64,000 nt of DNA from an uncultured Acidobacteriota bacterium (GCA_963778755.1 CAVZVJ010000011.1:10226-74225), one strand, 5' to 3'; numbered from the stretch's first letter, positions 1,491-42,456 are shown. Notes: generated by a model not told the origin, from the letters alone. Numbers and translations: made by a program.

Positions 1491-2180
1491 CTAACCCTTT
1501 CGGTCCTGTCGGAGCAAGGTCCGAACGGCTGAGTTCTTCCAGATGTTCGACATCTGATTCCACTGCCGCTTCTTGTCGATCAAAGCTGCCGACGAGGTCA
1601 CCACGGGATCGGTGACACCGAAGTGATTGGCAAGCTGGGTGAGGGTGTGGGTCCAGATCTTGTCCTCGAGACGCGAGGTGTAGAGCTTGAAACTCGCCTC
1701 GTATAGAGGGTCGTTGGCTCTCACCAGCAGGTGGATCTTGGCCACCGAGGCGCCGTCGTCTCCTTCGTGGGCGCTAAAGGTGATGATTGCGGCCCAGGGG
1801 TGGCCTTCGGGGGTCATGTATGACCAGGAACGCTCGTCGGCGTAGATCACCCGCACCCCGGTCGTGACCTTTGCCGGACCCTTGCCACCACCGATCACTG
1901 CCACCTCACCAGGGGTGATCCCACCTGCCGGGGCGTAGAACTTGTTGGAGGGGGGCCAGAACTCGCCGAAGTTCTCCTTCCAGGTGGAGATGATCACTTC
2001 TGGAGTCGGGCCCGGCACCACAACTTCGTAGGTCTTCTGCCAGAGCTGGCCGAAGCCTTGCAACGGACCGGTCGGCTTGCGTCCTTCGACATTCCCCTTT
2101 CTGGCTCCGTCGGCAACCTCTCCGACATGGAAGGCGTCTACCGGGTCAGCCCAGTTCTCGGCGTCTCTCGGCTCTGTCAA
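1491..2180 (-). CDS. Conserved hypothetical protein (possible START/SRPBCC-like fold)
   Basis: 229-aa ORF with AAGAAAGGA RBS; motifs QGFGQLWQKTY, MTPEGHP, RANDPLYE. The fold call is inference. Confidence 0.7.
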   Translation of the reverse strand: MTEPRDAENWADPVDAFHVGEVADGARKGNVEGRKPTGPLQGFGQLWQKTYEVVVPGPTPEVIISTWKENFGEFWPPSNKFYAPAGGITPGEVAVIGGGKGPAKVTTGVRVIYADERSWSYMTPEGHPWAAIITFSAHEGDDGASVAKIHLLVRANDPLYEASFKLYTSRLEDKIWTHTLTQLANHFGVTDPVVTSSAALIDKKRQWNQMSNIWKNSAVRTLLRQDRKG

Positions 2181-2204: not shown

Positions 2205-2236
2205 ATCAGATCAGGGACGCGTTCCGTGACCGTTAC
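2205..2236 (-). promoter_or_regulatory. 11-bp direct-repeat site A plus candidate -10
   Basis: GTAACG-gtcac-GGAACG-N9-TCTGAT upstream of 1491..2180. Confidence 0.55.
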
Positions 2237-3713: not shown

Positions 3714-4067
3714 TCAGACTGCAGCTAAGGCTGATGCCTCGTTGTCGTAGATGCCAATCGCTTCGTCGAGACGGGTCAGGGAGAAGATCTGGCGGTAGTG
3801 ATCGGACAAGCCATAAGCCAGGAGTTGGTGTCCGTTGCGCTGGGCGCGGATCAAGGTGGTGACCAGGAGCCCGATCCCGCCACTGTTCATGTACTCGAGT
3901 CCGTCGAAGTTGAGGATGATGGCCGTCACTCCGCCCCGAGCGGCCTCGTCGTGGGTTGCCGCGATCTCCTGCTCGGAAAATGATGTGATCTCGCCCGAGA
4001 TATCGATCACACGCACCCCGGGGGCAGCATCGCGAACTGTCATGGTCAGGTTGGACGTAGGCACCAT
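3714..4067 (-). CDS. STAS-domain anti-anti-sigma factor
   Basis: 117 aa, ILNFDGLEYMNSGGIGLL phospho-Ser loop, IFSLTRLD. Confidence 0.9.
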   Translation of the reverse strand: MVPTSNLTMTVRDAAPGVRVIDISGEITSFSEQEIAATHDEAARGGVTAIILNFDGLEYMNSGGIGLLVTTLIRAQRNGHQLLAYGLSDHYRQIFSLTRLDEAIGIYDNEASALAAV

Positions 4068-4076
4068 TGTCTCCAG

Positions 4077-4418
4077 TTATCTGGCTGCCACGGCAGCGTC
4101 TTCATCTTCGTAGATGGCCATGAAATCGGCGAGTCGGGTGATCTGAAAGACCTCCCGGTAGTGGTCGGTGAGACCGAAGGCCCCGATTTCCCTCCCCTCG
4201 GCCCGAGCCCGAGCCAACACACCGACAATGACCGCGATCCCGGTCGAGTTGATGTAGTCGACCTCACCGAAATCCAGAAGGACTCGACCCGGCTTCGAGG
4301 TCGCCTCTTCGTAGGCGCCCTCCAGGCCTTCCTTGGCAAGCCGGTTCACGGTCCCGGTCAGGTGCACCACACCTCCGTCGTCGCCCCAGGCGACTCTCGC
4401 CTCGAAGCCGTCGTCCAT
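4077..4418 (-). CDS. STAS-domain anti-anti-sigma factor
   Basis: 113 aa, LLDFGEVDYINSTGIAVI, VFQITRL; overlaps the upstream stop by 1 nt. Confidence 0.9.
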   Translation of the reverse strand: MDDGFEARVAWGDDGGVVHLTGTVNRLAKEGLEGAYEEATSKPGRVLLDFGEVDYINSTGIAVIVGVLARARAEGREIGAFGLTDHYREVFQITRLADFMAIYEDEDAAVAAR

Positions 4419-6007
4419 CAGGAGACTCCTTCTCTGTTCATGACAAGCTCCACGGTGTGGGTCTTGTCGTGGCTCTCGGTCTTGATCTCGTCAACCATTT
4501 GCCCGATCAGGAACAACCCCCAGCCACGTGGGGTCTGCTCACCGGCCAACTTGGCCTCGAGATCAGGGGTCTCGGCGTCGGGAATCGTCTTCTCACCACC
4601 CTGGTCGCTGACCAGGACACTCACATTTGTGGCCGTGGCCCTGACCTCGATCTCCACCGGTATCTCGGCGCGATTCTCGTTGCCATGCTCGATGGCATTC
4701 ATCACGGTCTCACCAACCGCGGTCTTGAGCCGTTCGAGCCGCGAGACCTCCATGCCCAGATTGCCGACGACCTCGGTCACCTTGGAGATCGCGATCCGCT
4801 CGTTGCCTTCCTCGCTAGGGACACTGAATTTGGCCAGCACCTCAGCCTCCCCAGCATCGAACGTCTTGGCGGATTCCTTGGCCGAAGCCGTGCGCCGGAC
4901 AACAACGAGGGTGATGTCATCCTCCTGCTCGGCGCCGGCACCGGTGAAGTTCTCCAGGTCACCGACCAGGGCCGCCACCATGTCGTCGTTTGAAGGCTTG
5001 ATGGCAACCCGCCCCATGAGGCGCCCGAACCCGTACATCTCGCCTTCACTGTTGTGGGCCTCGGTGATGCCGTCGCTGGTGAGCACCATCACATCACCGC
5101 GCTCCAGGCGGTAGGTTCGCTCGTCGTAAGGCATCCCTGGCATCAGACCGAGGGGCATCCCGGTCGCCCGCAGCTCGACCACTCCGTTACTGCTTCTGAC
5201 ATAGGGAAGGTTGTGCCCGGCATTGGCAAAAATGATCTCGCCCTGGCTGGTGTCGATGATTGCGTAGAGGCAAGTTACGAACATGGCCGGGGGGATCTCG
5301 GGCACGAGAGCCTCGTTCACTTCGGCAAGCACAGCCGAGGGCGAATCATGCTTTTGCGCTGCGGCCCGAAGCATCGACCGGCACGTCGCCATTACCAGCG
5401 CGGCCGGTACTCCTTTGTCAGTGACGTCGCCGATCACCACCCCCAGCCTTCCGTCATCGAGGGTGATGAAGTCGTAGAAGTCCCCGCCGACGGCGCGAGC
5501 CGGGCGATAGAAGGCATCCACGTGCCAACCCGGAATCGCGGGTAGCTCTTTGGGAAGCAATGTCTGCTGGATGAGGGCGGCGACCTGGAGCTCCTGTTGG
5601 ATTCGCTCTCTCTCCTTGGCCTCGGCCTGCTGCTCCCTCACCAACTGGGCGACCTTCATCGCCGGCGCCACCTGTGAGGCAAGACTCCCGAGAAGATGCC
5701 GATCGTCGGTCGAATAGGGCTGGTCCGAGAGGCGGGGCCCGAGATAGAGGGCTCCGAGTAGCTCACCCTGGCCGATGAGCGGCACGATGAGCTCGACGCC
5801 TCGGTCCCGCATCGACTGCAGCGCCTCGGACTCAAAGTCGACAGAGTCCAGCTCCAGGGGTGCTCCGGTGGATAGCAGGGCCGTTTCCAGGGGATCGCCC
5901 GGCGGAATCGGCACCGCGTCGATGACCCTGGTCCCTGGCGAAAGGGAGGTCTCGGGGGCCTCAGACGGGGCTTCCTCGGACTTGCGACGTCTCAACAACT
6001 GGACCAT
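4418..6007 (-). CDS. Partial GAF + SpoIIE/PP2C phosphatase + RsbW-like HATPase kinase fusion
   Basis: IVPLIGQGELLGALYLG (GAF C-half); VGGDFYD, IGDVTDKG, NAGH, SDGITEA, EDDIT (PP2C); ETVMNAIEHG, SDQG, RGWGLFLI (anti-sigma kinase). Confidence 0.9.
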   Translation of the reverse strand: MVQLLRRRKSEEAPSEAPETSLSPGTRVIDAVPIPPGDPLETALLSTGAPLELDSVDFESEALQSMRDRGVELIVPLIGQGELLGALYLGPRLSDQPYSTDDRHLLGSLASQVAPAMKVAQLVREQQAEAKERERIQQELQVAALIQQTLLPKELPAIPGWHVDAFYRPARAVGGDFYDFITLDDGRLGVVIGDVTDKGVPAALVMATCRSMLRAAAQKHDSPSAVLAEVNEALVPEIPPAMFVTCLYAIIDTSQGEIIFANAGHNLPYVRSSNGVVELRATGMPLGLMPGMPYDERTYRLERGDVMVLTSDGITEAHNSEGEMYGFGRLMGRVAIKPSNDDMVAALVGDLENFTGAGAEQEDDITLVVVRRTASAKESAKTFDAGEAEVLAKFSVPSEEGNERIAISKVTEVVGNLGMEVSRLERLKTAVGETVMNAIEHGNENRAEIPVEIEVRATATNVSVLVSDQGGEKTIPDAETPDLEAKLAGEQTPRGWGLFLIGQMVDEIKTESHDKTHTVELVMNREGVS

Positions 6008-6015
6008 GTACTCAC

Positions 6016-6047
6016 TTTCTAACTCGCGATCGTCTCGGAATCGTTAC
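6016..6047 (-). promoter_or_regulatory. 11-bp direct-repeat site C plus -10, inside the 3' end of the membrane gene
   Basis: GTAACG-attcc-GAGACG-N9-TAGAAA, then 8 nt to ATG 6007. Confidence 0.55.
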
Positions 6048-7254
6048 GAAATGCTGATTTGGTCCAAACCGCAATCGAAACAGGCTGCATGGTCGCGCTG
6101 ACCACACCCATCCAACCCTCGACCACCCGGTCGGCGTCGAGTTGATCCCGCAACGATCCCGCGAACCCATCCATCACTCGTTGCGTGTCGTAGTGGGAAC
6201 GGTTGAACCGACGATCCACCCAACCCTGGACCCGTCTCCGCACCGGGTTGAATAGCGCAGCCACAGCCAACGTGGTCGCCGCCACCACCAACTCGGACTG
6301 GTCCGGAAGCAATGTGGTCAACCAGGTGACCCCGGCCACATACACCGCTGCTAGAGCCACCACCACGACCGTGTATGAGACAGTTCGAGCGATGATCCGA
6401 TCGATCTCATACAAACCGTGGCGGGTAATAGCGATCGCAATCGCGGCGGCGGCCCCGATTCCCCACAACGAGAGAATCACCAAAATCGGGTCTATGCCAT
6501 GGTCTCCGATAAGCCCTTCGAGAAGGTTTCCCAGGACGAAAAGGATGGGGAAGGTCGCGAAGGCAGCAAAGAACCATCGGAACTGCTGTCTCTCGGTGCC
6601 ACGCGAGTGGCGAAAGCGGACAAAGAGGTCGACGATCGCAAGCAGGAACAGCGCAGCCATCACCCAACCGAGAGCCTCGACAATCGGATCGAGGAACTGG
6701 TCGGAACCAGGTATGTCGAATGGATTATTGGGTGGCGCGACATCTCCTTCTACAGGACCCGGTCTCGTCGCGCGCGCAGCAGCGTTCAGCACGGCAACGG
6801 GCAGAATCGCTCGTATCACCAAACGTCCTGCGCTGGTGGTGGCAGACCCCGTCGGATAGAGCAGCACCAGGATCACGACCAGCGTCACCGGAACCATCAC
6901 CACCCAAGTCGTCAACCAGGCAGCAAGGCCGCCCAGTGGGAGTGATCCCGGCACCGTGACCAGCGCATAGCGGCCGTAGGCACTGGCAAAGGCCCCCAAA
7001 CCCACGGAGAAGGTGATGCCCGAAAGGATCCAGCCGATGCGATTGGAGGGGCGACTGGAAACCAGCAGAGCTCCGACGAGGCCGAATCCAACGAATGCGG
7101 AGAAGAAGATGAGCCCCTCCAACACCGTCGACGGCGGATCCGGTGGCGAGACTGACGGGTTGAGAGGAGTCAACACAGCCGCCGCCACCATGCCGGCCAC
7201 TCCTAGCAGCCACATGGTCCAACTCAGGAGCGCAGCGCGGCGCCGAGACATCAA
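6019..7254 (-). CDS. Polytopic membrane sensor-like protein ending in the N-terminal part of a GAF-like domain
   Basis: About 9-10 TM segments, RPSNRIGW, ERQQFRWF, LYEIDRII, PVRRRVQGWVDRRFNRSHYD, TMQPVSIAVW; clear paralogue of 41311..42456. Confidence 0.85.
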   Translation of the reverse strand: MMSRRRAALLSWTMWLLGVAGMVAAAVLTPLNPSVSPPDPPSTVLEGLIFFSAFVGFGLVGALLVSSRPSNRIGWILSGITFSVGLGAFASAYGRYALVTVPGSLPLGGLAAWLTTWVVMVPVTLVVILVLLYPTGSATTSAGRLVIRAILPVAVLNAAARATRPGPVEGDVAPPNNPFDIPGSDQFLDPIVEALGWVMAALFLLAIVDLFVRFRHSRGTERQQFRWFFAAFATFPILFVLGNLLEGLIGDHGIDPILVILSLWGIGAAAAIAIAITRHGLYEIDRIIARTVSYTVVVVALAAVYVAGVTWLTTLLPDQSELVVAATTLAVAALFNPVRRRVQGWVDRRFNRSHYDTQRVMDGFAGSLRDQLDADRVVEGWMGVVSATMQPVSIAVWTKSAFRNDSETIAS

Positions 7255-7385
7255 ATTCCGCCCGAGATCTCACTGGCGAGAGCCCACATCCCGAAGACAG
7301 CAATGAGGCAGACAGCCAACGTCCGGGTCAGCCCTGAGATTGTCCGTGATGTCGTCAGGGCTCGACTCCGTCATTCATCGGCGGC

Positions 7386-7417
7386 AGCATGCCATTGCTT
7401 CGTTACGTAACCGCAAC
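7386..7417 (-). promoter_or_regulatory. 11-bp direct-repeat site E (degenerate first repeat) plus -10
   Basis: GTTGCG-gttac-GTAACG-N9-CATGCT upstream of 6019..7254. Confidence 0.45.
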
Positions 7418-7454
7418 CGAGCTGAACGAACGGGGGAAGCTGCGACCGGTTCAT

Positions 7455-10260
7455 ATGCCGTTCCGTAATCTCAAGTTGCGCAAATCTCGTAACGCACCAA
7501 TATCTCCCCATCACAGGCACAACCATCGACATCAGGCTCCTCGGGCCGCCGCGGATCGAGAAGGCCGGAACGTCAATCGACGTGGACACCAGGAAGGCGA
7601 TTGCGCTCCTCGCCTACCTGACCGTCGAGACGACTGCCACGCGCGACCGGCTGGCGAGCCTCCTGTGGCCCGAGGCCAACACGGAGCGGTCACGAGCCAC
7701 CTTGCGGCGCACGCTCTCCTCGCTGCGCACCGCGGTCGGCCATGAGACAGTTACCGCCGACAGGATCGGCGTGGCTCTCGCTGAAGGCACGCCAAGTGAT
7801 ATCCGCACCTTCACCGACGAGCTCGAAGCGACCTACCACCACGACCATGACCGGGGCGACGTATGTGGTCTTTGCATTCCCCATCTCGAGAAGGCCACCG
7901 TTCTCTACCGGGGTGACTTCCTCGAGGGTTTCTCCATGCGAGACGCCGCCGAGTTCGAGGACTGGGCCCGCACCGTCACCGAGTCGCTTCGGATTCAAGC
8001 CGGGGTCGCCTTTCAACGTCTGGCCATGGCAAGAGCAGCCTCAGGCGACTACTCGGGCGCCCTCGGCGCTGTCCACAACTGGATCGAGCTCGATCCACTC
8101 CACGAGCCCGCCTACCGCCTTCTCATGCTGCTCAACGCCTGGGATGGCGACCGGCCGGGAGCGGTCGAGGCGTACCGGCGATGCGTCGGAGTTCTCGACC
8201 AGGAGCTTGGAGTTCCGCCCCTGGAGGAGACCACCGAGCTCTACGAGGCAATCCTCGATGAGGACCTCCCACCGGCGCCTGGTGTCAGGAGAAAGGTCAA
8301 GGCACAGGCGGTAGCAGTGGCGCAACGTGAGGCCATGATCGACCGGGAGGAGGAGACGGCCACTCTGCTCCAGGCCATGGACAGCCTCTCCGTCACAGGC
8401 AACGTGCTGGTTATCGCTGGGTCGGCATGGATGGGAAAGACCCGTCTGCTCGAGGAGTTGGGCCCGGCCTCGAGGATCTCGGGTCGCTCGGTGCTCTCTG
8501 GTCGCGCCTTCCGAATGGAACAAGATCTGCCTTTCGGGGTGGCGGCCCAACTACTCCGATCCGCCGCACCCCTGATCGACAGAAACCTCGAGTTGCTGCC
8601 CAACTGGGCCATGGGCGAGGTGGCGCGGCTGGTCCCCGAAATTCACCAGGCACCGGTGTCGACCGAAAGCGCCGATCCCTTCGGCGAGCTTCGTCTCTAT
8701 GACGGCGTGCACACGGTGCTCAGCGAACTGGCACGAATCCATCCGATCGTGATCATGATCGACGATGTGCAATGGCTTGACCCAGCGTCGGCGGGTCTCG
8801 TCTCTTACATCGCCAGCCGCCTCGAAACGTCGCCGTTGCTGCTCGTCCTCGCCGTGAGGTCAGGGGAACCACTCTCGGAGGTGACGAGCGAGCTGATCTC
8901 GGCCGCCGGTACCCACATCGACTTGCAGCCACTAACCATCGACCAACTGAGCGACGTTGCCGGCACTCTCGAAGCCGCCACGGAACTTCACCGGAGGACG
9001 GGAGGGATCCCACTTTTGGTGACCGAAGAGTTGTCGGACCGAGGCGACCACGGCCCCGAAGGCCTGGGGATGGTGCGCTACATGGAGTCACGCTTGAGGG
9101 ACATCAGCGACCTGGGTCGACAGGTGGCCACTGCGGCAGCGGTGCTCAACGGTGTCTGTGATGCCGCCTTGCTCCGAGAGACCAGCGGCCGCACCGAGGA
9201 CGAAGTAGTCGACGCCGTCGAGGAGTTGATTGCCGTCGGCTTGTTGCGGGAGCTGCCCGATGGAGACGGCCTGGCATTCAACCTCGATGCCCTGGAGCGG
9301 CTCACCTACGAGTCGACATCCCTGATCAGACGCCGGCTGCTCCACCGGCGTGCGGCATCAGCGCTGGCGGAACGCTCTCACTCCGCATCCGACCCCCGTC
9401 TCGCCGCTGCAGTGGCATTCCAGCTCGAGGGGGCCGGGTCGAGTGAGAGTGTCGAGTGGTACCGGCGCGCCGCCGACCTCTCGCGGGCCGTGTACGCATA
9501 TGCCGAGGCTCGGAGTCTCTACGAGAAGGCCCTCGGACTCGGTGACGCCGACCCCGCTGCAATCCATATGGCGCTTGGGGAGATCGCCATGTCAGTCGGC
9601 GAATACGACCAGGCCCTTCAAGAGCTCAACGGCGCCGCGGCCCTTGCTGACGGCGATCAGCTCGGCCTTGCCGAGCACCGTTTGGGTGAGGTTCAGCGTC
9701 TTGTTGGCCGGTTCCCCTTGGCGGCCGAGCATTACGAACGGGCTTTGGCCCTCCACCCGCAACCTGCGGAGGTGCATGCCGATTGGGCCCTGTTGTTGCA
9801 AAGGACGGGCGATGTCCCCGGAGCCCTCGAGCAGGCCGAGCTAGCTGTTGCGGCTGCCACCACCACCGGGGATCCGAGACAGCTCTCGCGAGCCCAGAAC
9901 ATCCTCGGAGTTATTTCGTCGGACCCGGACACCGCGATGGAGCATCTCGAAGAAGCAATGAGGCTCGCCGGCGAGGACGACCTGCTTCGAATGGCAGCCC
10001 TCAACAACCAGGCGCTGCTCCATACCGCGGCCGGGGAAGATCAACCAGCAGTGGAGTTGATCGAGGAGGCCATCCAGATCGCGGCCAGGACCGGTAATCG
10101 CCACCGGGAGGCCGCTTTGCACAATCATCTCGCCGATATTCACCACAGAGCAGGGCGGGAAGAGGAAGCGGAGCAACAGCTGATGCAAGCCGTCTCATTG
10201 TTCGCCGACGTCCACGCCGGAGGGCAGGAACCTGAGGTTTGGCTCCTCCGCCAGTGGTGA
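7455..10260 (+). CDS. SARP/BTAD transcriptional regulator with STAND-type AAA ATPase and TPR domains (start uncertain)
   Basis: IRLLGPPRI...TRKAIALLAYL wHTH, LYRGDFLEGF and DPLHEPAYRLLM BTAD, Walker A GSAWMGKT, Walker B IDDVQWLD, TPRs, C-terminal EPEVWLLRQW. Coding continues upstream of GTG 7582 with no in-frame start; ATG 7455 or TTG 7476 joins if one extra C near 7508 is removed. Confidence 0.85.
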
Positions 10261-41272: not shown

Positions 41273-41304
41273 GTAACGATCCCGTAACGGGTCCCTCTTA
41301 GCAT
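41273..41304 (+). promoter_or_regulatory. 11-bp direct-repeat site D plus -10, leaderless start
   Basis: GTAACG-atccc-GTAACG-N9-TAGCAT, then 6 nt to GTG 41311. Confidence 0.65.
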
Positions 41305-41310
41305 CGCGGG

Positions 41311-42456
41311 GTGAGGCTCCTGAAGTTCGTGATCCTCGTCGCCGTGGGCATAGCGTTATTGGCGGCCCAACTCGGCCAAAGGCCTGCAGGTGATGTGTTA
41401 CTCGCCTGCATGGCTTTCATCATTTATGCCGCTATGGGCGGTCTGATCATCTTTCGCCACGACGGTCATCTCACTGGCTGGTTGTTGAGCTCCCTGGGCT
41501 TGGCCATTGTCCTCGCCGATGGGATCCATTCGATCCCGGGCCTATCGGAGGTGTTCGCTCAATGGGTGTCGAGCTTGTCCTGGCCCACGGTCTTTGCCCT
41601 CTTCGCCGCGTTGACCCTGACCTTTCCGTCCGGACACGGGCCTCAAGGGGGTAGTCGATGGGCCCGGCTTGGCCGGTTGACCCTGTGGGCACTCCCCGGC
41701 CTGATTGTTGTCTGCGCTTTCATTCAGACACTCGGAGGGCCTGAGGCAGATTCTCATACCCGAAATCCGATCGGCTTCCTCCCAGCCTGGGTCGGAGCCG
41801 CGGCGTTGATCCTGATCGTGGCGATCCTGATCGGTGGCTCGATCTCACTGGTGGTGAAACGGCGCCGAGCCAGCGGGGTCGAGCGCGCTCAGCTCACCTG
41901 GGTGGTCTTCGGCGTCACGCTCCTTGCTGCCTCGGTGACCCTCACCTATATCTTCCTAATCGCGTCTGTCGCCATGGGTGGAAGCGACCCGGGGGACTCG
42001 GCCTGGATAGTCGCATTTCTGGTGATGATCCTGTTTCCGGCTTCATTCGGGGTGGCGGTGCTCCGCTATCGGCTCTTCGACATCGACCGGATCGTGTCTC
42101 GGACCGTTGGATACACGCTGGTGGCCGGGACCCTGGCAGCCATATTCGCACTGGTCGTCACCGTGCTGACCTCACTTCTGAAGTCCGAGAGCGACATCGT
42201 GGTTGCCGGATCGACCCTCGCGGTCGCCGCATTGTTTAACCCGGTGAGGAGGAGAATCCAGGACTGGGTCGACCGTAGGTTCAACCGGTCCCACTATGAC
42301 GCGCGACGTGTGAGTGACGACTTCGGCCGCCAGGTCAGAGATGAGCTAGATATGGAGCGAATCGTCGAAGGTTGCGAAGAGGTCATCTCGAGGATCCTCG
42401 AGCCGACGACGCTCGGGGTCTGGATCAGAGATGATGCCACGGCGGTGCACCCATAG
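41311..42456 (+). CDS. Polytopic membrane sensor-like protein, paralogue of 6019..7254
   Basis: ERAQLTWV, LFDIDRIVSRT, NPVRRRIQDWVDRRFNRSHYD, ILEPTTLGVW; no output domain follows. Confidence 0.85.
   Translation: MRLLKFVILVAVGIALLAAQLGQRPAGDVLLACMAFIIYAAMGGLIIFRHDGHLTGWLLSSLGLAIVLADGIHSIPGLSEVFAQWVSSLSWPTVFALFAALTLTFPSGHGPQGGSRWARLGRLTLWALPGLIVVCAFIQTLGGPEADSHTRNPIGFLPAWVGAAALILIVAILIGGSISLVVKRRRASGVERAQLTWVVFGVTLLAASVTLTYIFLIASVAMGGSDPGDSAWIVAFLVMILFPASFGVAVLRYRLFDIDRIVSRTVGYTLVAGTLAAIFALVVTVLTSLLKSESDIVVAGSTLAVAALFNPVRRRIQDWVDRRFNRSHYDARRVSDDFGRQVRDELDMERIVEGCEEVISRILEPTTLGVWIRDDATAVHP

Follow-up and report, generated by a model that had tools for sequence, protein, structure and literature searches.

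A GAF domain encoded in two halves by a membrane protein gene and a phosphatase-kinase gene

In the window, namely the whole stretch of 64,000 nucleotides that was analysed, taken from a genome that is 58% complete, two neighbouring genes, A and B, are real, separately translated genes that jointly encode one GAF domain, a conclusion reached from sequence alone. Regarding how the two proteins relate, the favoured reading, to which we assign a probability of roughly 0.6, is that the tail of A docks on B and thereby completes the GAF fold of one switch; docking in trans is an inference, and there are no binding data. The pair was called as two separate minus-strand ORFs, with reading frames that differ across the junction:

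7254..6019, minus strand: gene A, 411 aa, multi-pass membrane protein; C-terminal end ...FAGSLRDQLDADRVVEGWMGVVSATMQPVSIAVWTKSAFRNDSETIAS followed by the stop
6008..6018, minus strand: spacer from the A stop to the B ATG, 11 nt, genes out of frame
6007..4418, minus strand: gene B, 529 aa; start MVQLLRRRKSEE...TRVIDAVPIPPGDPLE...VELIVPLIGQGELLGALYLGP...DDRHLLGSLASQVAPAM

The frame of B is -1 relative to A, just 12 codons are open 5' of the B ATG, and they contain no alternative start. The 11-nt spacing recurs in four related genomes (G002, G003, G009, G010), and other spacings are found elsewhere.

As for gene A, it has no Pfam match at E ≤ 0.1 and no NCBIfam match, and it is divided as follows, with a second module of the same type further along the window:

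6250..7254, minus strand: A residues 1-335, membrane part, ~8-9 transmembrane helices by hydropathy peaks
6139..6249, minus strand: A residues 336-372, juxtamembrane helix, Arg-rich, NPVRRRVQGWVDRRFNRSHYD...SLRDQL, the family signature
6058..6138, minus strand: A residues 373-399, GAF alpha1 + beta1 "plug", DADRVVEGWMGVVSATMQP-VSIAVWTK
6019..6057, minus strand: last 12 codons of A and TAG stop, SAFRNDSETIAS, extension beyond the GAF plug
41311..42456, plus strand: second A-type module, 381 aa, same alpha1-beta1 end, ...EPTTLGVWIRDDATAVHP followed by the stop

The membrane part is variable and is inferred to be a putative sensor region; the matching region of P0102, a fused homologue, is predicted to be helical by AF2 (pLDDT 82-94). 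In the juxtamembrane helix, ten positions are nearly invariant in the family alignment (P337, R339, R341, D347, R348, R349, F350, R352, Y355 and D356), and the corresponding segment of a relative, L036, is predicted as a single long helix (residues 2-33 of the AF2 construct). A profile search of solved structures aligned the A tail to alpha1-beta1 of the GAF domains 8w26 and 2lb5, and stand-alone proteins of the A family terminate 0-10 residues beyond this plug. The last ~12 codons of A lie outside the fold and overlap a conserved DNA element 5' of B; this extension is confined to the B-adjacent copy (64 aa after RRFNR vs 52-57 aa in non-adjacent paralogues) because that ORF reads into the DNA element upstream of B.

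Gene B and the two genes that follow it are organised as listed here:

5933..6007, minus strand: B residues 1-25, N-terminal stretch, basic then acidic, MVQLLRRRKSEEAPSEAPE..., probably disordered
5633..5932, minus strand: B residues ~26-125, headless GAF "socket", beta2 to the last strand plus the C-terminal helix
5459..5632, minus strand: B residues ~126-183, helical linker, a long helix joining GAF and phosphatase
4892..5458, minus strand: B residues 184-372, PP2C-type Ser/Thr phosphatase, SpoIIE family, PF07228
4442..4813, minus strand: B residues 399-522, RsbW/SpoIIAB-like ATPase, anti-sigma-type Ser kinase domain, PF13581
4077..4418, minus strand: STAS protein 1, 113 aa, PF01740 with E = 1e-10; base 4418 is shared with the B stop codon
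3714..4067, minus strand: STAS protein 2, 117 aa, PF01740 with E = 1.2e-14

The start of B, hydrophobic and then RRR(K/R), is kept across classes, and the L036 counterpart of the N-terminal stretch has a pLDDT below 50 in the AF2 model; the counterpart of the linker is modelled as a continuous helix both in L036 (197-247) and in fused P0102 (487-537). The phosphatase domain belongs to the PP2C/SpoIIE family by a full-length profile match (PF07228, profile 1-191 of 192, 181.6 bits with the cut-off at 25, E = 2e-53), its catalysis being inferred from sequence alone. The ATPase domain matches HATPase_c_2 (PF13581) with 66.8 bits (cut-off 27.4, E = 2.4e-18), and it scores under the cut-offs of the NCBIfam models SpoIIAB (54.1 of 135 bits) and RsbW (36.8 of 145), hence it is a member of the family and not an equivalog of either. 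The criterion of a partner-switching system, STAS antagonists encoded with the phosphatase and the kinase, is fulfilled by the two genes directly downstream, whose products are likely, by inference, the substrates of the B kinase and phosphatase; among the ORFs of the window, no sigma factor gene is adjacent to this locus.

The evidence that A and B share one domain comes from profiles and models. B matches the GAF profile PF01590 with residues 32-116 (28.2 bits, cut-off 22.4), covering only positions 47-132 of the 133 in the profile, and the matches of the B head among solved structures are almost exclusively GAF domains. Fused P0102 covers positions 1-132 (35.6 bits), with the match beginning exactly at the segment homologous to the A tail, and an artificial concatenation of the A tail and the B head gives a single GAF match, profile 12-132, that spans the junction; since A on its own has no match, neither protein is a complete GAF domain and together they are one. 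In the GAF topology, the strand missing from B is internal to the sheet, so that stability of the headless domain by itself is unlikely.

The AF2 target was the natural in-frame read-through of L036, comprising A-tail, TAG (as Gln) and B-head in one tethered chain; thus the modelled chain is that of a relative, with a B protein ~55% identical to that of the window, and not the window's own pair, and the alignment had trimmed rows, 14 of which covered both halves. The model contains one GAF-like domain (mean pLDDT 82, pTM 0.71): in the A tail, a helix at 39-54 and a strand at 58-63 assigned as paired reach a pLDDT of ~94-95, the B head has 89-98, and the segment linking tail to head is disordered. 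The top Foldseek matches of this model are all GAF domains (5w10, 3jab, 4y2f, 3eea; target-normalised TM-score 0.6-0.69), with alignments that extend across the linker between the halves; the three-dimensional GAF fold is therefore predicted to be met by the composite of the relative. Given the tethered single chain and the 14 spanning rows, the model speaks for compatibility of fold, not for affinity. In the model of P0102, built on 46 aligned rows, confidence is high for the membrane part and the PP2C domain, and the tail and GAF have a pLDDT below 50, which makes that run uninformative on the GAF domain.

These results bear out the layout proposed in the first-pass annotation, since all of its statements on the layout held: A ends in the helices and first strand that open a GAF domain (the juxtamembrane helix and alpha1-beta1), the next gene begins with the rest of the domain (Pfam positions 47-132 only), and the genes are 11 nt apart and out of frame. 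Its further proposal, a split receptor docking by completion of the GAF domain, is supported, with physical docking in trans still an inference; modelling does show the complementary GAF, in the single-chain read-through of L036. The possibility it had left open, that relatives would show one continuous ORF cut here by an indel, is not upheld: the split form, with the start Met of B unchanged, prevails among relatives at 75-97% identity, and it also prevails within the genus, the family and the order, in other classes and in a second phylum.

Homologues of B of ~529 aa with the same start Met form >100 protein clusters at 73-97% identity, drawn from JGI, ENA, NCBI and Logan assemblies, many of them independent and including both short-read and long-read data. 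The two-gene layout is also present in Acidimicrobiia, Gaiellales, Rubrobacteraceae, Blastococcus, Ktedonobacter and Chloroflexia, including the isolate genomes of Ktedonobacter racemifer DSM 44963 and Blastococcus saxobsidens DSM 44509. The form of the junction depends on the lineage, with gaps of 11, 10 or 5 nt, gaps of 93-156 nt, 4-nt ATGA overlaps, in-frame stops and divergent orientation, and the genes nevertheless remain two; hence the split is old and maintained, and is not one shared error. Both genes are under purifying selection, with dN/dS values of 0.29 (A), 0.13 (A tail) and 0.05 (B). Natural fusions are rare and carry a full-length GAF domain (profile 1-132); in fused paralogues from the same genus, the distance from tail to head is only ~6 residues, within one ORF. 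Two further candidates were rejected as fusions: P0018 (1410 aa) joins two membrane modules and B via Arg/Pro-rich, out-of-frame-looking stretches and probably derives from an error-prone assembly, and the 731-aa ORF of L052 was discarded on the same grounds.

A DNA element precedes B:

6031..6048, minus strand: DNA element "site C", CGTAACGATTCCGAGACG, within the last codons of A

Its pattern, CGTAACG-N4-CGRGACG, is a direct repeat of ~7 nt with its two copies 11 nt apart, located 20-40 nt before the B ATG; a TAGAAA-like hexamer (6016-6021) comes next, 8 nt before this ATG. It occurs upstream of B in 19/19 aligned related loci, whatever gene sits upstream, and the window has two matches to the pattern vs 0.07 expected; copies of its core with zero mismatches are also found at 2221-2236 (minus strand) and 41273-41288 (plus strand), the GTAACG element of the latter lying 22 nt upstream of the second A-type module. 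In other genera, the nucleotides of the element are translated in any of the three frames, or are present without an upstream A gene. The peptide SRNDFGT was accordingly rejected as a conserved protein motif: it turns up in each of the three frames, and also where A is missing, so that conservation is at the DNA level. The site had been read as the phosphatase's own promoter inside A: it is real and conserved, but a scan of 5800-7700 found neither a sigma-70 consensus promoter nor a terminator. Reading the element as a SigB/SigF-type (GTTT...GGGTA) or an ECF-type promoter was rejected on spacing. A small hairpin (stem CCCG/CGGG) was also discarded, the stem having 3-6 bp only and being broken in one related locus (L018), and Rfam gave no match in 5800-6300 at E ≤ 10, frameshift elements included.

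Beyond what the first-pass annotation had claimed, A is a member of a very large family of membrane modules without an output, several per single B. Stand-alone A-like proteins of ~400 aa make up 18,536 representative clusters (E ≤ 1e-3); they are covered by neither a Pfam nor an NCBIfam model, and most have no output domain. A genome encodes 2-16 A paralogues, often as tandem arrays beside a single B gene, and within a genome their tails are 52-82% identical vs 32-39% for the membrane parts, a conservation to which gene conversion within the arrays has possibly contributed. Arrays of 3-10 A genes adjoin B or run divergent from it in at least nine genomes and, beyond these, in other classes; every member is an intact ORF of the usual length that has a start of its own, and the stop of one often overlaps the start of the next.

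Regarding co-occurrence, A-tails (2-13 copies) and the B-head were detected in exactly the same 9 of the 151 genomes sampled across the class, and both were absent from the remaining 142/142, congeners of the 9 included; the positive genomes all belong to one family, so these counts are not phylogenetically independent. Co-occurrence is imperfect, as three related genomes have only one partner: G005 (98% complete) and G008 (92%) contain one A-type gene each and lack B, and G007 (97% complete) has B with no stand-alone A tail found at E ≤ 1e-5. In close relatives with B proteins 92% identical, the B-adjacent A is a different copy with only 40% identity overall. A modules and B are gained, lost and positioned together, with several A per B. 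The A family may be much larger than the B family, in which case many A proteins would act without B.

In the mechanism we favour, the strand of the A tail would insert into the incomplete sheet of B, and the A helix would pack on the C-terminal helix of B's GAF half; docking would both complete the fold and tether B to the membrane, so that the membrane domain would be connected without a break, via the GAF helices, to the phosphatase. Signals would be coupled in the manner of fused TM-GAF-PP2C sensors and of RsbU-type phosphatases, for which activation through a linker helix has been described (PMC12143880); depending on its state, the membrane module would shift the balance of the two activities, phosphatase and kinase, on the STAS proteins, and this balance is the output of partner switching. 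Since the A tails of one genome resemble each other, its various sensors would either share the single B or compete for it, and many inputs would be wired to one switch. In addition, B and the orphan A, 35 kb apart, have the same upstream element, and co-regulation is possible without co-transcription. It is likely, docking itself being inferred, that one signalling enzyme accepts several membrane sensors that can replace one another.

A bolder version, for which the odds appear evenly balanced, regards the GAF domain as plug and socket for up to 13-16 interchangeable membrane receptors per genome and one cytosolic phosphatase-kinase. Until a receptor supplies the missing part of its GAF domain, B would remain unfolded or inactive; natural fragment complementation would account for the choice of receptor, the recruitment to the membrane and the allosteric control alike, and this wiring of many inputs to one output would be conserved across Actinomycetota and Chloroflexota.

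The alternative that survives best, and that remains possible, is that A and B are linked functionally without complementation of the fold: the truncated GAF domain of B would fold or dimerise alone, for instance with beta2 paired directly to the last strand or through a domain-swapped homodimer, and the A tail would serve A-A oligomerisation or another partner, its effect on B being indirect or nil. This reading is favoured by the orphan cases (A without B in G005 and G008, B without a stand-alone A in G007), by the size of the A family, whose members mostly stand alone, and by the GAF domain of fused P0102, which AF2 did not build confidently. Against it, a headless GAF domain is unlikely to be stable without its internal strand, the strand at the end of the A tail (VSIAVW / VSLWL) is strongly hydrophobic and requires something to pair with, and the confident composite, a model prediction, favours complementation; the phyletic match (9/9 together, 142/142 absent) and the tight synteny require a functional link.

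A second alternative, very unlikely, sees the A arrays as a store of cassettes, where recombination through the tail DNA swaps the B-adjacent sensor and only the adjacent copy is functional, acting by translational coupling or local assembly. The tails are indeed far better conserved than the membrane parts, and different paralogues hold the B-adjacent slot in close relatives; on the other hand, the array members are intact, with their own starts and a dN/dS below 1, the orphan A at 41311-42456 has its own upstream element, and the array of G019 is divergent from B. Cassette exchange is compatible with docking of the A tail on B and does not exclude it.

Less likely still is that a programmed frameshift or stop read-through also yields a fused receptor during translation. 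In its favour, the frame of B is -1 to that of A and stays open over the 12 codons that precede its ATG, and the L036 genes are in frame with a single TAG between them; however, 6019-6057 contains no slippery heptamer and no Rfam frameshift element, the shift required varies between lineages, which excludes a single conserved recoding mechanism, and orphan and non-adjacent A genes could not be fused by such a route. Finally, an assembly artefact or a recent pseudogenisation, i.e. a single-base indel that cut one TM-GAF-PP2C gene, would be suggested by the one indel within 6022-6050 that would join the frames, by the known fused homologues (P0102, L057, L064), by frameshifts in related long-read MAGs (B of G001 at L013, the truncated A of G010) and by the long-read-like character of the window MAG itself, but even without raw-read data it is all but excluded by the identical split and B start in >100 clusters from independent assemblies including short-read and isolate genomes, the inconstant junction geometry, the thousands of stand-alone A-type proteins that terminate at the same point, and the conserved upstream element and start that B has of its own.

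Among known systems, the closest are the fused TM-GAF-(PAS)-SpoIIE proteins (Rubrobacter P0102 and P0151, and the fused paralogues in the genus of the window's bacterium), which have the same membrane module, RRFxRxRYD helix, GAF and PP2C domains, with 44-48% identity to A/B over the junction region. In A/B, unlike these sensors, the chain is cut inside the GAF domain after beta1, the input half is found as several paralogues that stand alone, and the output half carries an extra RsbW-like kinase domain. The RsbU/RsbP-RsbV-RsbW and SpoIIE-SpoIIAA-SpoIIAB modules, like the B locus, combine a PP2C phosphatase and an RsbW-type kinase acting, for B by inference, on STAS proteins, and in RsbU-type enzymes the phosphatase is controlled via a regulatory domain at the N-terminus and a linker of helical structure (PMC12143880), which B resembles; the B locus differs by having phosphatase and kinase in one chain, two STAS genes and no nearby sigma factor. 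Unlike RsbT, A would supply part of the regulatory domain of its target instead of acting as a separate folded partner.

Multi-pass membrane input modules that precede cytoplasmic GAF/PAS and output domains (PMC11109136) offer a general analogy for A. None of 42 diverse members of the A family matches HisKA_7TM (PF16927) or 5TMR-LYT (PF07694) at E ≤ 0.01, and HisKA_7TM was rejected as the closest family; A proteins, unlike the sensors of these two families, are mostly without any output domain. Split inteins (Npu DnaE) and the donor-strand complementation of chaperone-usher pili are cases in which one fold is encoded by two genes, or a strand completes a sheet. The likeness of A/B to them is a resemblance by analogy and not membership, given that A/B has no splicing and no polymerisation and concerns a signalling domain with many donors and one acceptor. 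The two-gene criterion for a naturally split protein is met, and reconstitution of fold and function by non-covalent association is inferred; the literature searched contained nothing relevant on a natural split GAF domain.

As for its meaning, the boundary between the two genes falls inside a domain, and this cut is conserved in two phyla, whereas bacterial signalling proteins are usually viewed as strings of complete domains, and separate ones as communicating via the surfaces of folded domains. The membrane halves have multiplied and diversified, and the enzyme half is still single-copy. If the halves do reassemble, A/B would be a naturally evolved equivalent of engineered split-protein sensors and would reveal a simple evolutionary route by which new sensors reach a switch already in place, the duplication of a plug-bearing receptor with the enzyme unchanged, and it would give a function to a large, unannotated family of ~400-aa membrane proteins.

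The membrane protein (A) and the phosphatase-kinase (B) are encoded side by side, with two STAS genes directly after B:

7254..6019, minus strand: ORF A, multi-pass membrane protein of 411 aa, TTG start
6007..4418, minus strand: ORF B, phosphatase-kinase of 529 aa, beginning 11 nt after A
4418..4077, minus strand: small STAS-domain protein (Pfam)
4067..3714, minus strand: small STAS-domain protein (Pfam)

Regarding B, Pfam places a SpoIIE/PP2C domain at residues 184-372 (E = 2e-53) and an RsbW-like HATPase_c_2 domain at residues 399-522; the GAF match (residues 32-116) covers profile positions 47-132 of 133 only, and NCBIfam is consistent with these calls. As for A, neither Pfam nor NCBIfam has a model matching it; its hydrophobic helices, about 8-9, lead into a cytoplasmic tail rich in Arg, NPVRRRVQGWVDRRFNRSHYD...DADRVVEGWMGVVSATMQPVSIAVWTK. 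The two frames differ, and upstream of the ATG of B the same frame is open for just 12 codons, none of which is an alternative start. The description of A and B in the first-pass annotation was thus accurate. The joining of a PP2C phosphatase and an RsbW-like kinase in one chain, followed by two STAS genes (3714-4418, minus strand), is a partner switch whose output cannot be identified from the neighborhood, as no sigma factor gene lies near B and the STAS genes.

The missing part of the GAF of B is found in the tail of A. Natural fusions of the two exist: P0102, a TM-GAF-PP2C homologue, and about 85 Rubrobacter-type TM-GAF-(PAS)-SpoIIE proteins, loci L057 (Chloroflexota) and L064 (Acidimicrobiia), and a 1211-aa ORF in the related genome G118. 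In P0102, the Pfam GAF match extends over profile positions 1-132 and starts at the segment homologous to the tail of A. A profile derived from fused sequences together with tail-only and head-only ones, searched against the PDB, gave significant matches almost exclusively to GAF domains, with full-length alignments including 4mcw (profile 28-162 to residues 16-167) and 3eea (31-161 to 6-159); here the tail of A aligned with α1-β1 of cyanobacteriochrome GAFs. Taken together, the fusions and the Pfam and PDB profile alignments indicate that A carries α1 and β1, and B the remainder of the domain. In GAF domains, β1 sits inside the sheet, between β2 and the last strand; the domain of B therefore lacks this internal strand, and of the two helices that pack on the sheet it has only one.

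Most genomes of this genus also have a fused paralogue, in which about 6 residues separate the tail from the head, so that fused and split forms coexist within one genome. These paralogues (G006:C129, G007:C32, G001:C4, G002:C7, G011:C275, G012:C303, G010:C3) have open frames of 571-822 aa in which the GAF is complete; they are 37-43% identical to the split pair in the tail and 39-43% in the head.

As for structure prediction, AlphaFold2 on the fused P0102 (46-row alignment) was confident for the membrane and PP2C parts; the tail and GAF had pLDDT below 50, and this run gives no information on the GAF region. The second target was not the out-of-frame pair of the window but that of locus L036 ("Actinobacteria bacterium isolate 23"), where a single TAG separates A from B in one reading frame; the B of this locus shares about 55% identity with that of the window. 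The modeled chain of 266 aa joined A-tail, natural spacer and B-head, with TAG read as Gln; of the 87 rows in its cleaned alignment, 55 cover the tail, 46 cover the head and 14 span the two. The mean pLDDT was 82 and the pTM 0.71. The juxtamembrane segment is a single long helix (residues 2-33), α1 spans residues 39-54, and strand 58-63 of the tail is predicted as a paired strand, with pLDDT of about 94-95; the spacer of ~45 residues and the N-terminus of B are disordered, and the head of B has pLDDT of 89-98. Since all other strands of the chain belong to B, the model puts a strand of A in the sheet of B. Foldseek matches to the PDB were, when significant, all GAF domains (Lcd1 5w10, PDE6 3jab, KdpD 4y2f, 3eea), with target-normalized TM of 0.6-0.69 and alignments of 200-225 columns for targets of 150-170 residues, which bridge the spacer. 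Tail and head are thereby predicted to be compatible with one GAF fold; the prediction concerns a tethered chain from a relative, is informed by the fused homologues in its alignment, and does not show binding.

The extreme N-terminus of B (residues 1-12), disordered in the model, has a hydrophobic-then-basic motif, MVQLLRRRK, kept across classes; other loci among L035-L068 have ...ALSRPFRRL, ...RVIRRS or ...IGLRRGR. It is possible that this is a membrane-binding or docking motif.

The gene boundary itself is widely conserved. With the concatenated junction region as query, 6,270 proteins were significant; the best 120, from JGI, ENA, NCBI and Logan assemblies, are almost all of ~529 aa, 73-97% identical and with the architecture of B, and those B homologues examined at full length share the MVQL... 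start. In genomes of the genus, family and order, the match to B always starts at its own Met, and A-type tails either stop just ahead of it or are located elsewhere. The gap is 11 nt in G002, G003, G009 and G010, 10 nt in G004, 5 nt in G021 and 600 nt in G037; L041, L044 and L047 have a 4-nt ATGA overlap, L036, L040 and G030/L068 have both genes in frame with a stop codon between, and in G019 the genes are divergent. As the junction varies between lineages, one assembly error cannot account for the split. The same two-gene system is also found in Gaiellales, Thermoleophilia, Rubrobacteraceae, Chloroflexia and Ktedonobacteria, with Ktedonobacter racemifer DSM 44963 and Blastococcus saxobsidens DSM 44509 as isolates that carry it. 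Purifying selection acts on both A and B: dN/dS against G012 is 0.29 for the whole of A, 0.13 for the tail of A and 0.05 for B.

At L013 (G001:C3), L032 (G010:C21), L052 and P0018, copies of A or B are frameshifted or truncated, or ORFs merge neighboring modules; the few-contig MAGs behind them are likely long-read assemblies. Such MAGs carry indel errors, and single-genome ORF calls here therefore need comparison with relatives.

The A family is large: phmmer against 1.84 billion representatives gave 18,536 matches at E ≤ 1e-3 and 2,999 at E ≤ 1e-30. Nearly all of the best 150 are ~400 aa long, and their aligned region ends at residue ~399-401 of A, a few residues short of the C-terminus of the matched protein itself. 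Pfam membrane-sensor models matched none of 42 diverse members; HisKA_7TM, considered as the closest family, failed this membership test and was rejected. Genomes have 2-16 A-type tails, often in tandem, translationally coupled arrays adjoining B (G004 has six copies, G030 about ten, and G002, G003, G009, G015 and G016 at least four); in G019 the array is divergent from B, and arrays with B also occur in Gaiellaceae and Chloroflexia. The genome of the window has a third module on contig 4, and the window itself a second:

41311-42456, plus strand: second A module, ending at the same point as the A family

Within a genome, the membrane parts of paralogues share 32-39% identity and the tails 52-82%. 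The A copy next to B varies among close relatives: between the window genome and G012 it is just 40% identical overall, and the B proteins 92%. In an even sample of the class (151 genomes), tails and B-heads co-occur in exactly the same 9, whose congeners lack both; exceptions among close relatives are G005 and G008, with one A and no B, and G007, with B and no stand-alone tail. The only A-type gene of G005 (L033, G005:C179:953-1975; genome 98% complete) is a shorter copy of 340 aa, possibly an orphan or decaying module, beside a 129-aa ORF that we take, by appearance and without a family library, to be a PIN/VapC-type toxin and another that we take by appearance to be a glycoside hydrolase.

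Compared with its paralogues, the A copy adjacent to B has ~8 additional residues. This added peptide, (S/F)RND(F/S)(G/E)T..., was rejected as a conserved protein motif because the nucleotides encoding it are found in any of the frames; they also lie upstream of B without a preceding A gene in G007, G015, G016, G019, G037 and G038, so the conserved unit is DNA. The element, CGTAACG-N4-CGRGACG, consists of two heptamers 11 nt apart, with a TAGAAA-like hexamer 8-9 nt after it and 6-9 nt before the ATG of B; it is conserved upstream of B across classes (L036, L040).

6031-6048 (core 6032-6047), minus strand: element upstream of B, by sequence match
2221-2236, minus strand: core copy, zero mismatch, upstream of gene 2180..1491 (229 aa, unknown function)
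41273-41288, plus strand: core copy, zero mismatch, 22 nt upstream of the second (orphan) A module
7402-7417, plus strand: core copy, one mismatch, before the 892-aa regulator
7582-10260, plus strand: 892-aa regulator, divergent from A, with strong TPR-repeat matches

Allowing ≤1 mismatch, GTAACG-N4-CG(N)RAC has 5 matches in the window versus 1.7 expected. The element precedes gene 2180..1491, B, the orphan A and probably the regulator; judged on sequence alone, these copies look like a small regulon. The region has no Rfam match and no sigma-70 consensus. In SARP-type regulation, direct repeats replace the -35 element, and the geometry here could fit such an activator-dependent promoter, although this is only inferred. 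The regulator resembles the SARP-family AfsR only weakly in NCBIfam (E = 5e-14, well under the cut-off) and is a tentative candidate for binding the 11-bp direct repeats, without binding data. The first-pass annotation placed a promoter for B inside A: the conserved element is real, the promoter role unproven. If the promoter reading is true, B gets its own, possibly leaderless, transcript.

The same annotation interpreted A and B as a split receptor, proposing that fused and split homologues be compared and the proteins co-folded. Computation supports this as far as it can: the split form is the rule in relatives, with fusions also existing, and a complementary GAF was found, albeit only in the tethered single chain of L036. 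Docking of A modules on B, with the tail of A completing the GAF of B, is inferred, without binding data, and we give it a probability of about 0.6. The main rival, that A and B are functionally linked and their folds not complementary, is less likely but not excluded. Cassette swapping of A modules is unlikely and would in any case be compatible with docking; translational recoding joining A and B is less likely still. That the split is an assembly artefact is all but excluded, given that independent assemblies, isolates and differing junction geometries all keep two genes.

In conclusion, the parts of the system are ordinary (TM sensor, GAF, PP2C, RsbW/STAS partner switch); what is new is that a gene boundary cuts through the GAF, at a conserved position, and that the half bearing α1-β1 has expanded into many paralogues. 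No natural split GAF is described in the literature searched. In the docking model, A would recruit B to the membrane, the membrane domain would be coupled to both PP2C and kinase through the N- and C-terminal helices of the GAF, which lie side by side, and the two STAS proteins would carry the output as their state of phosphorylation.
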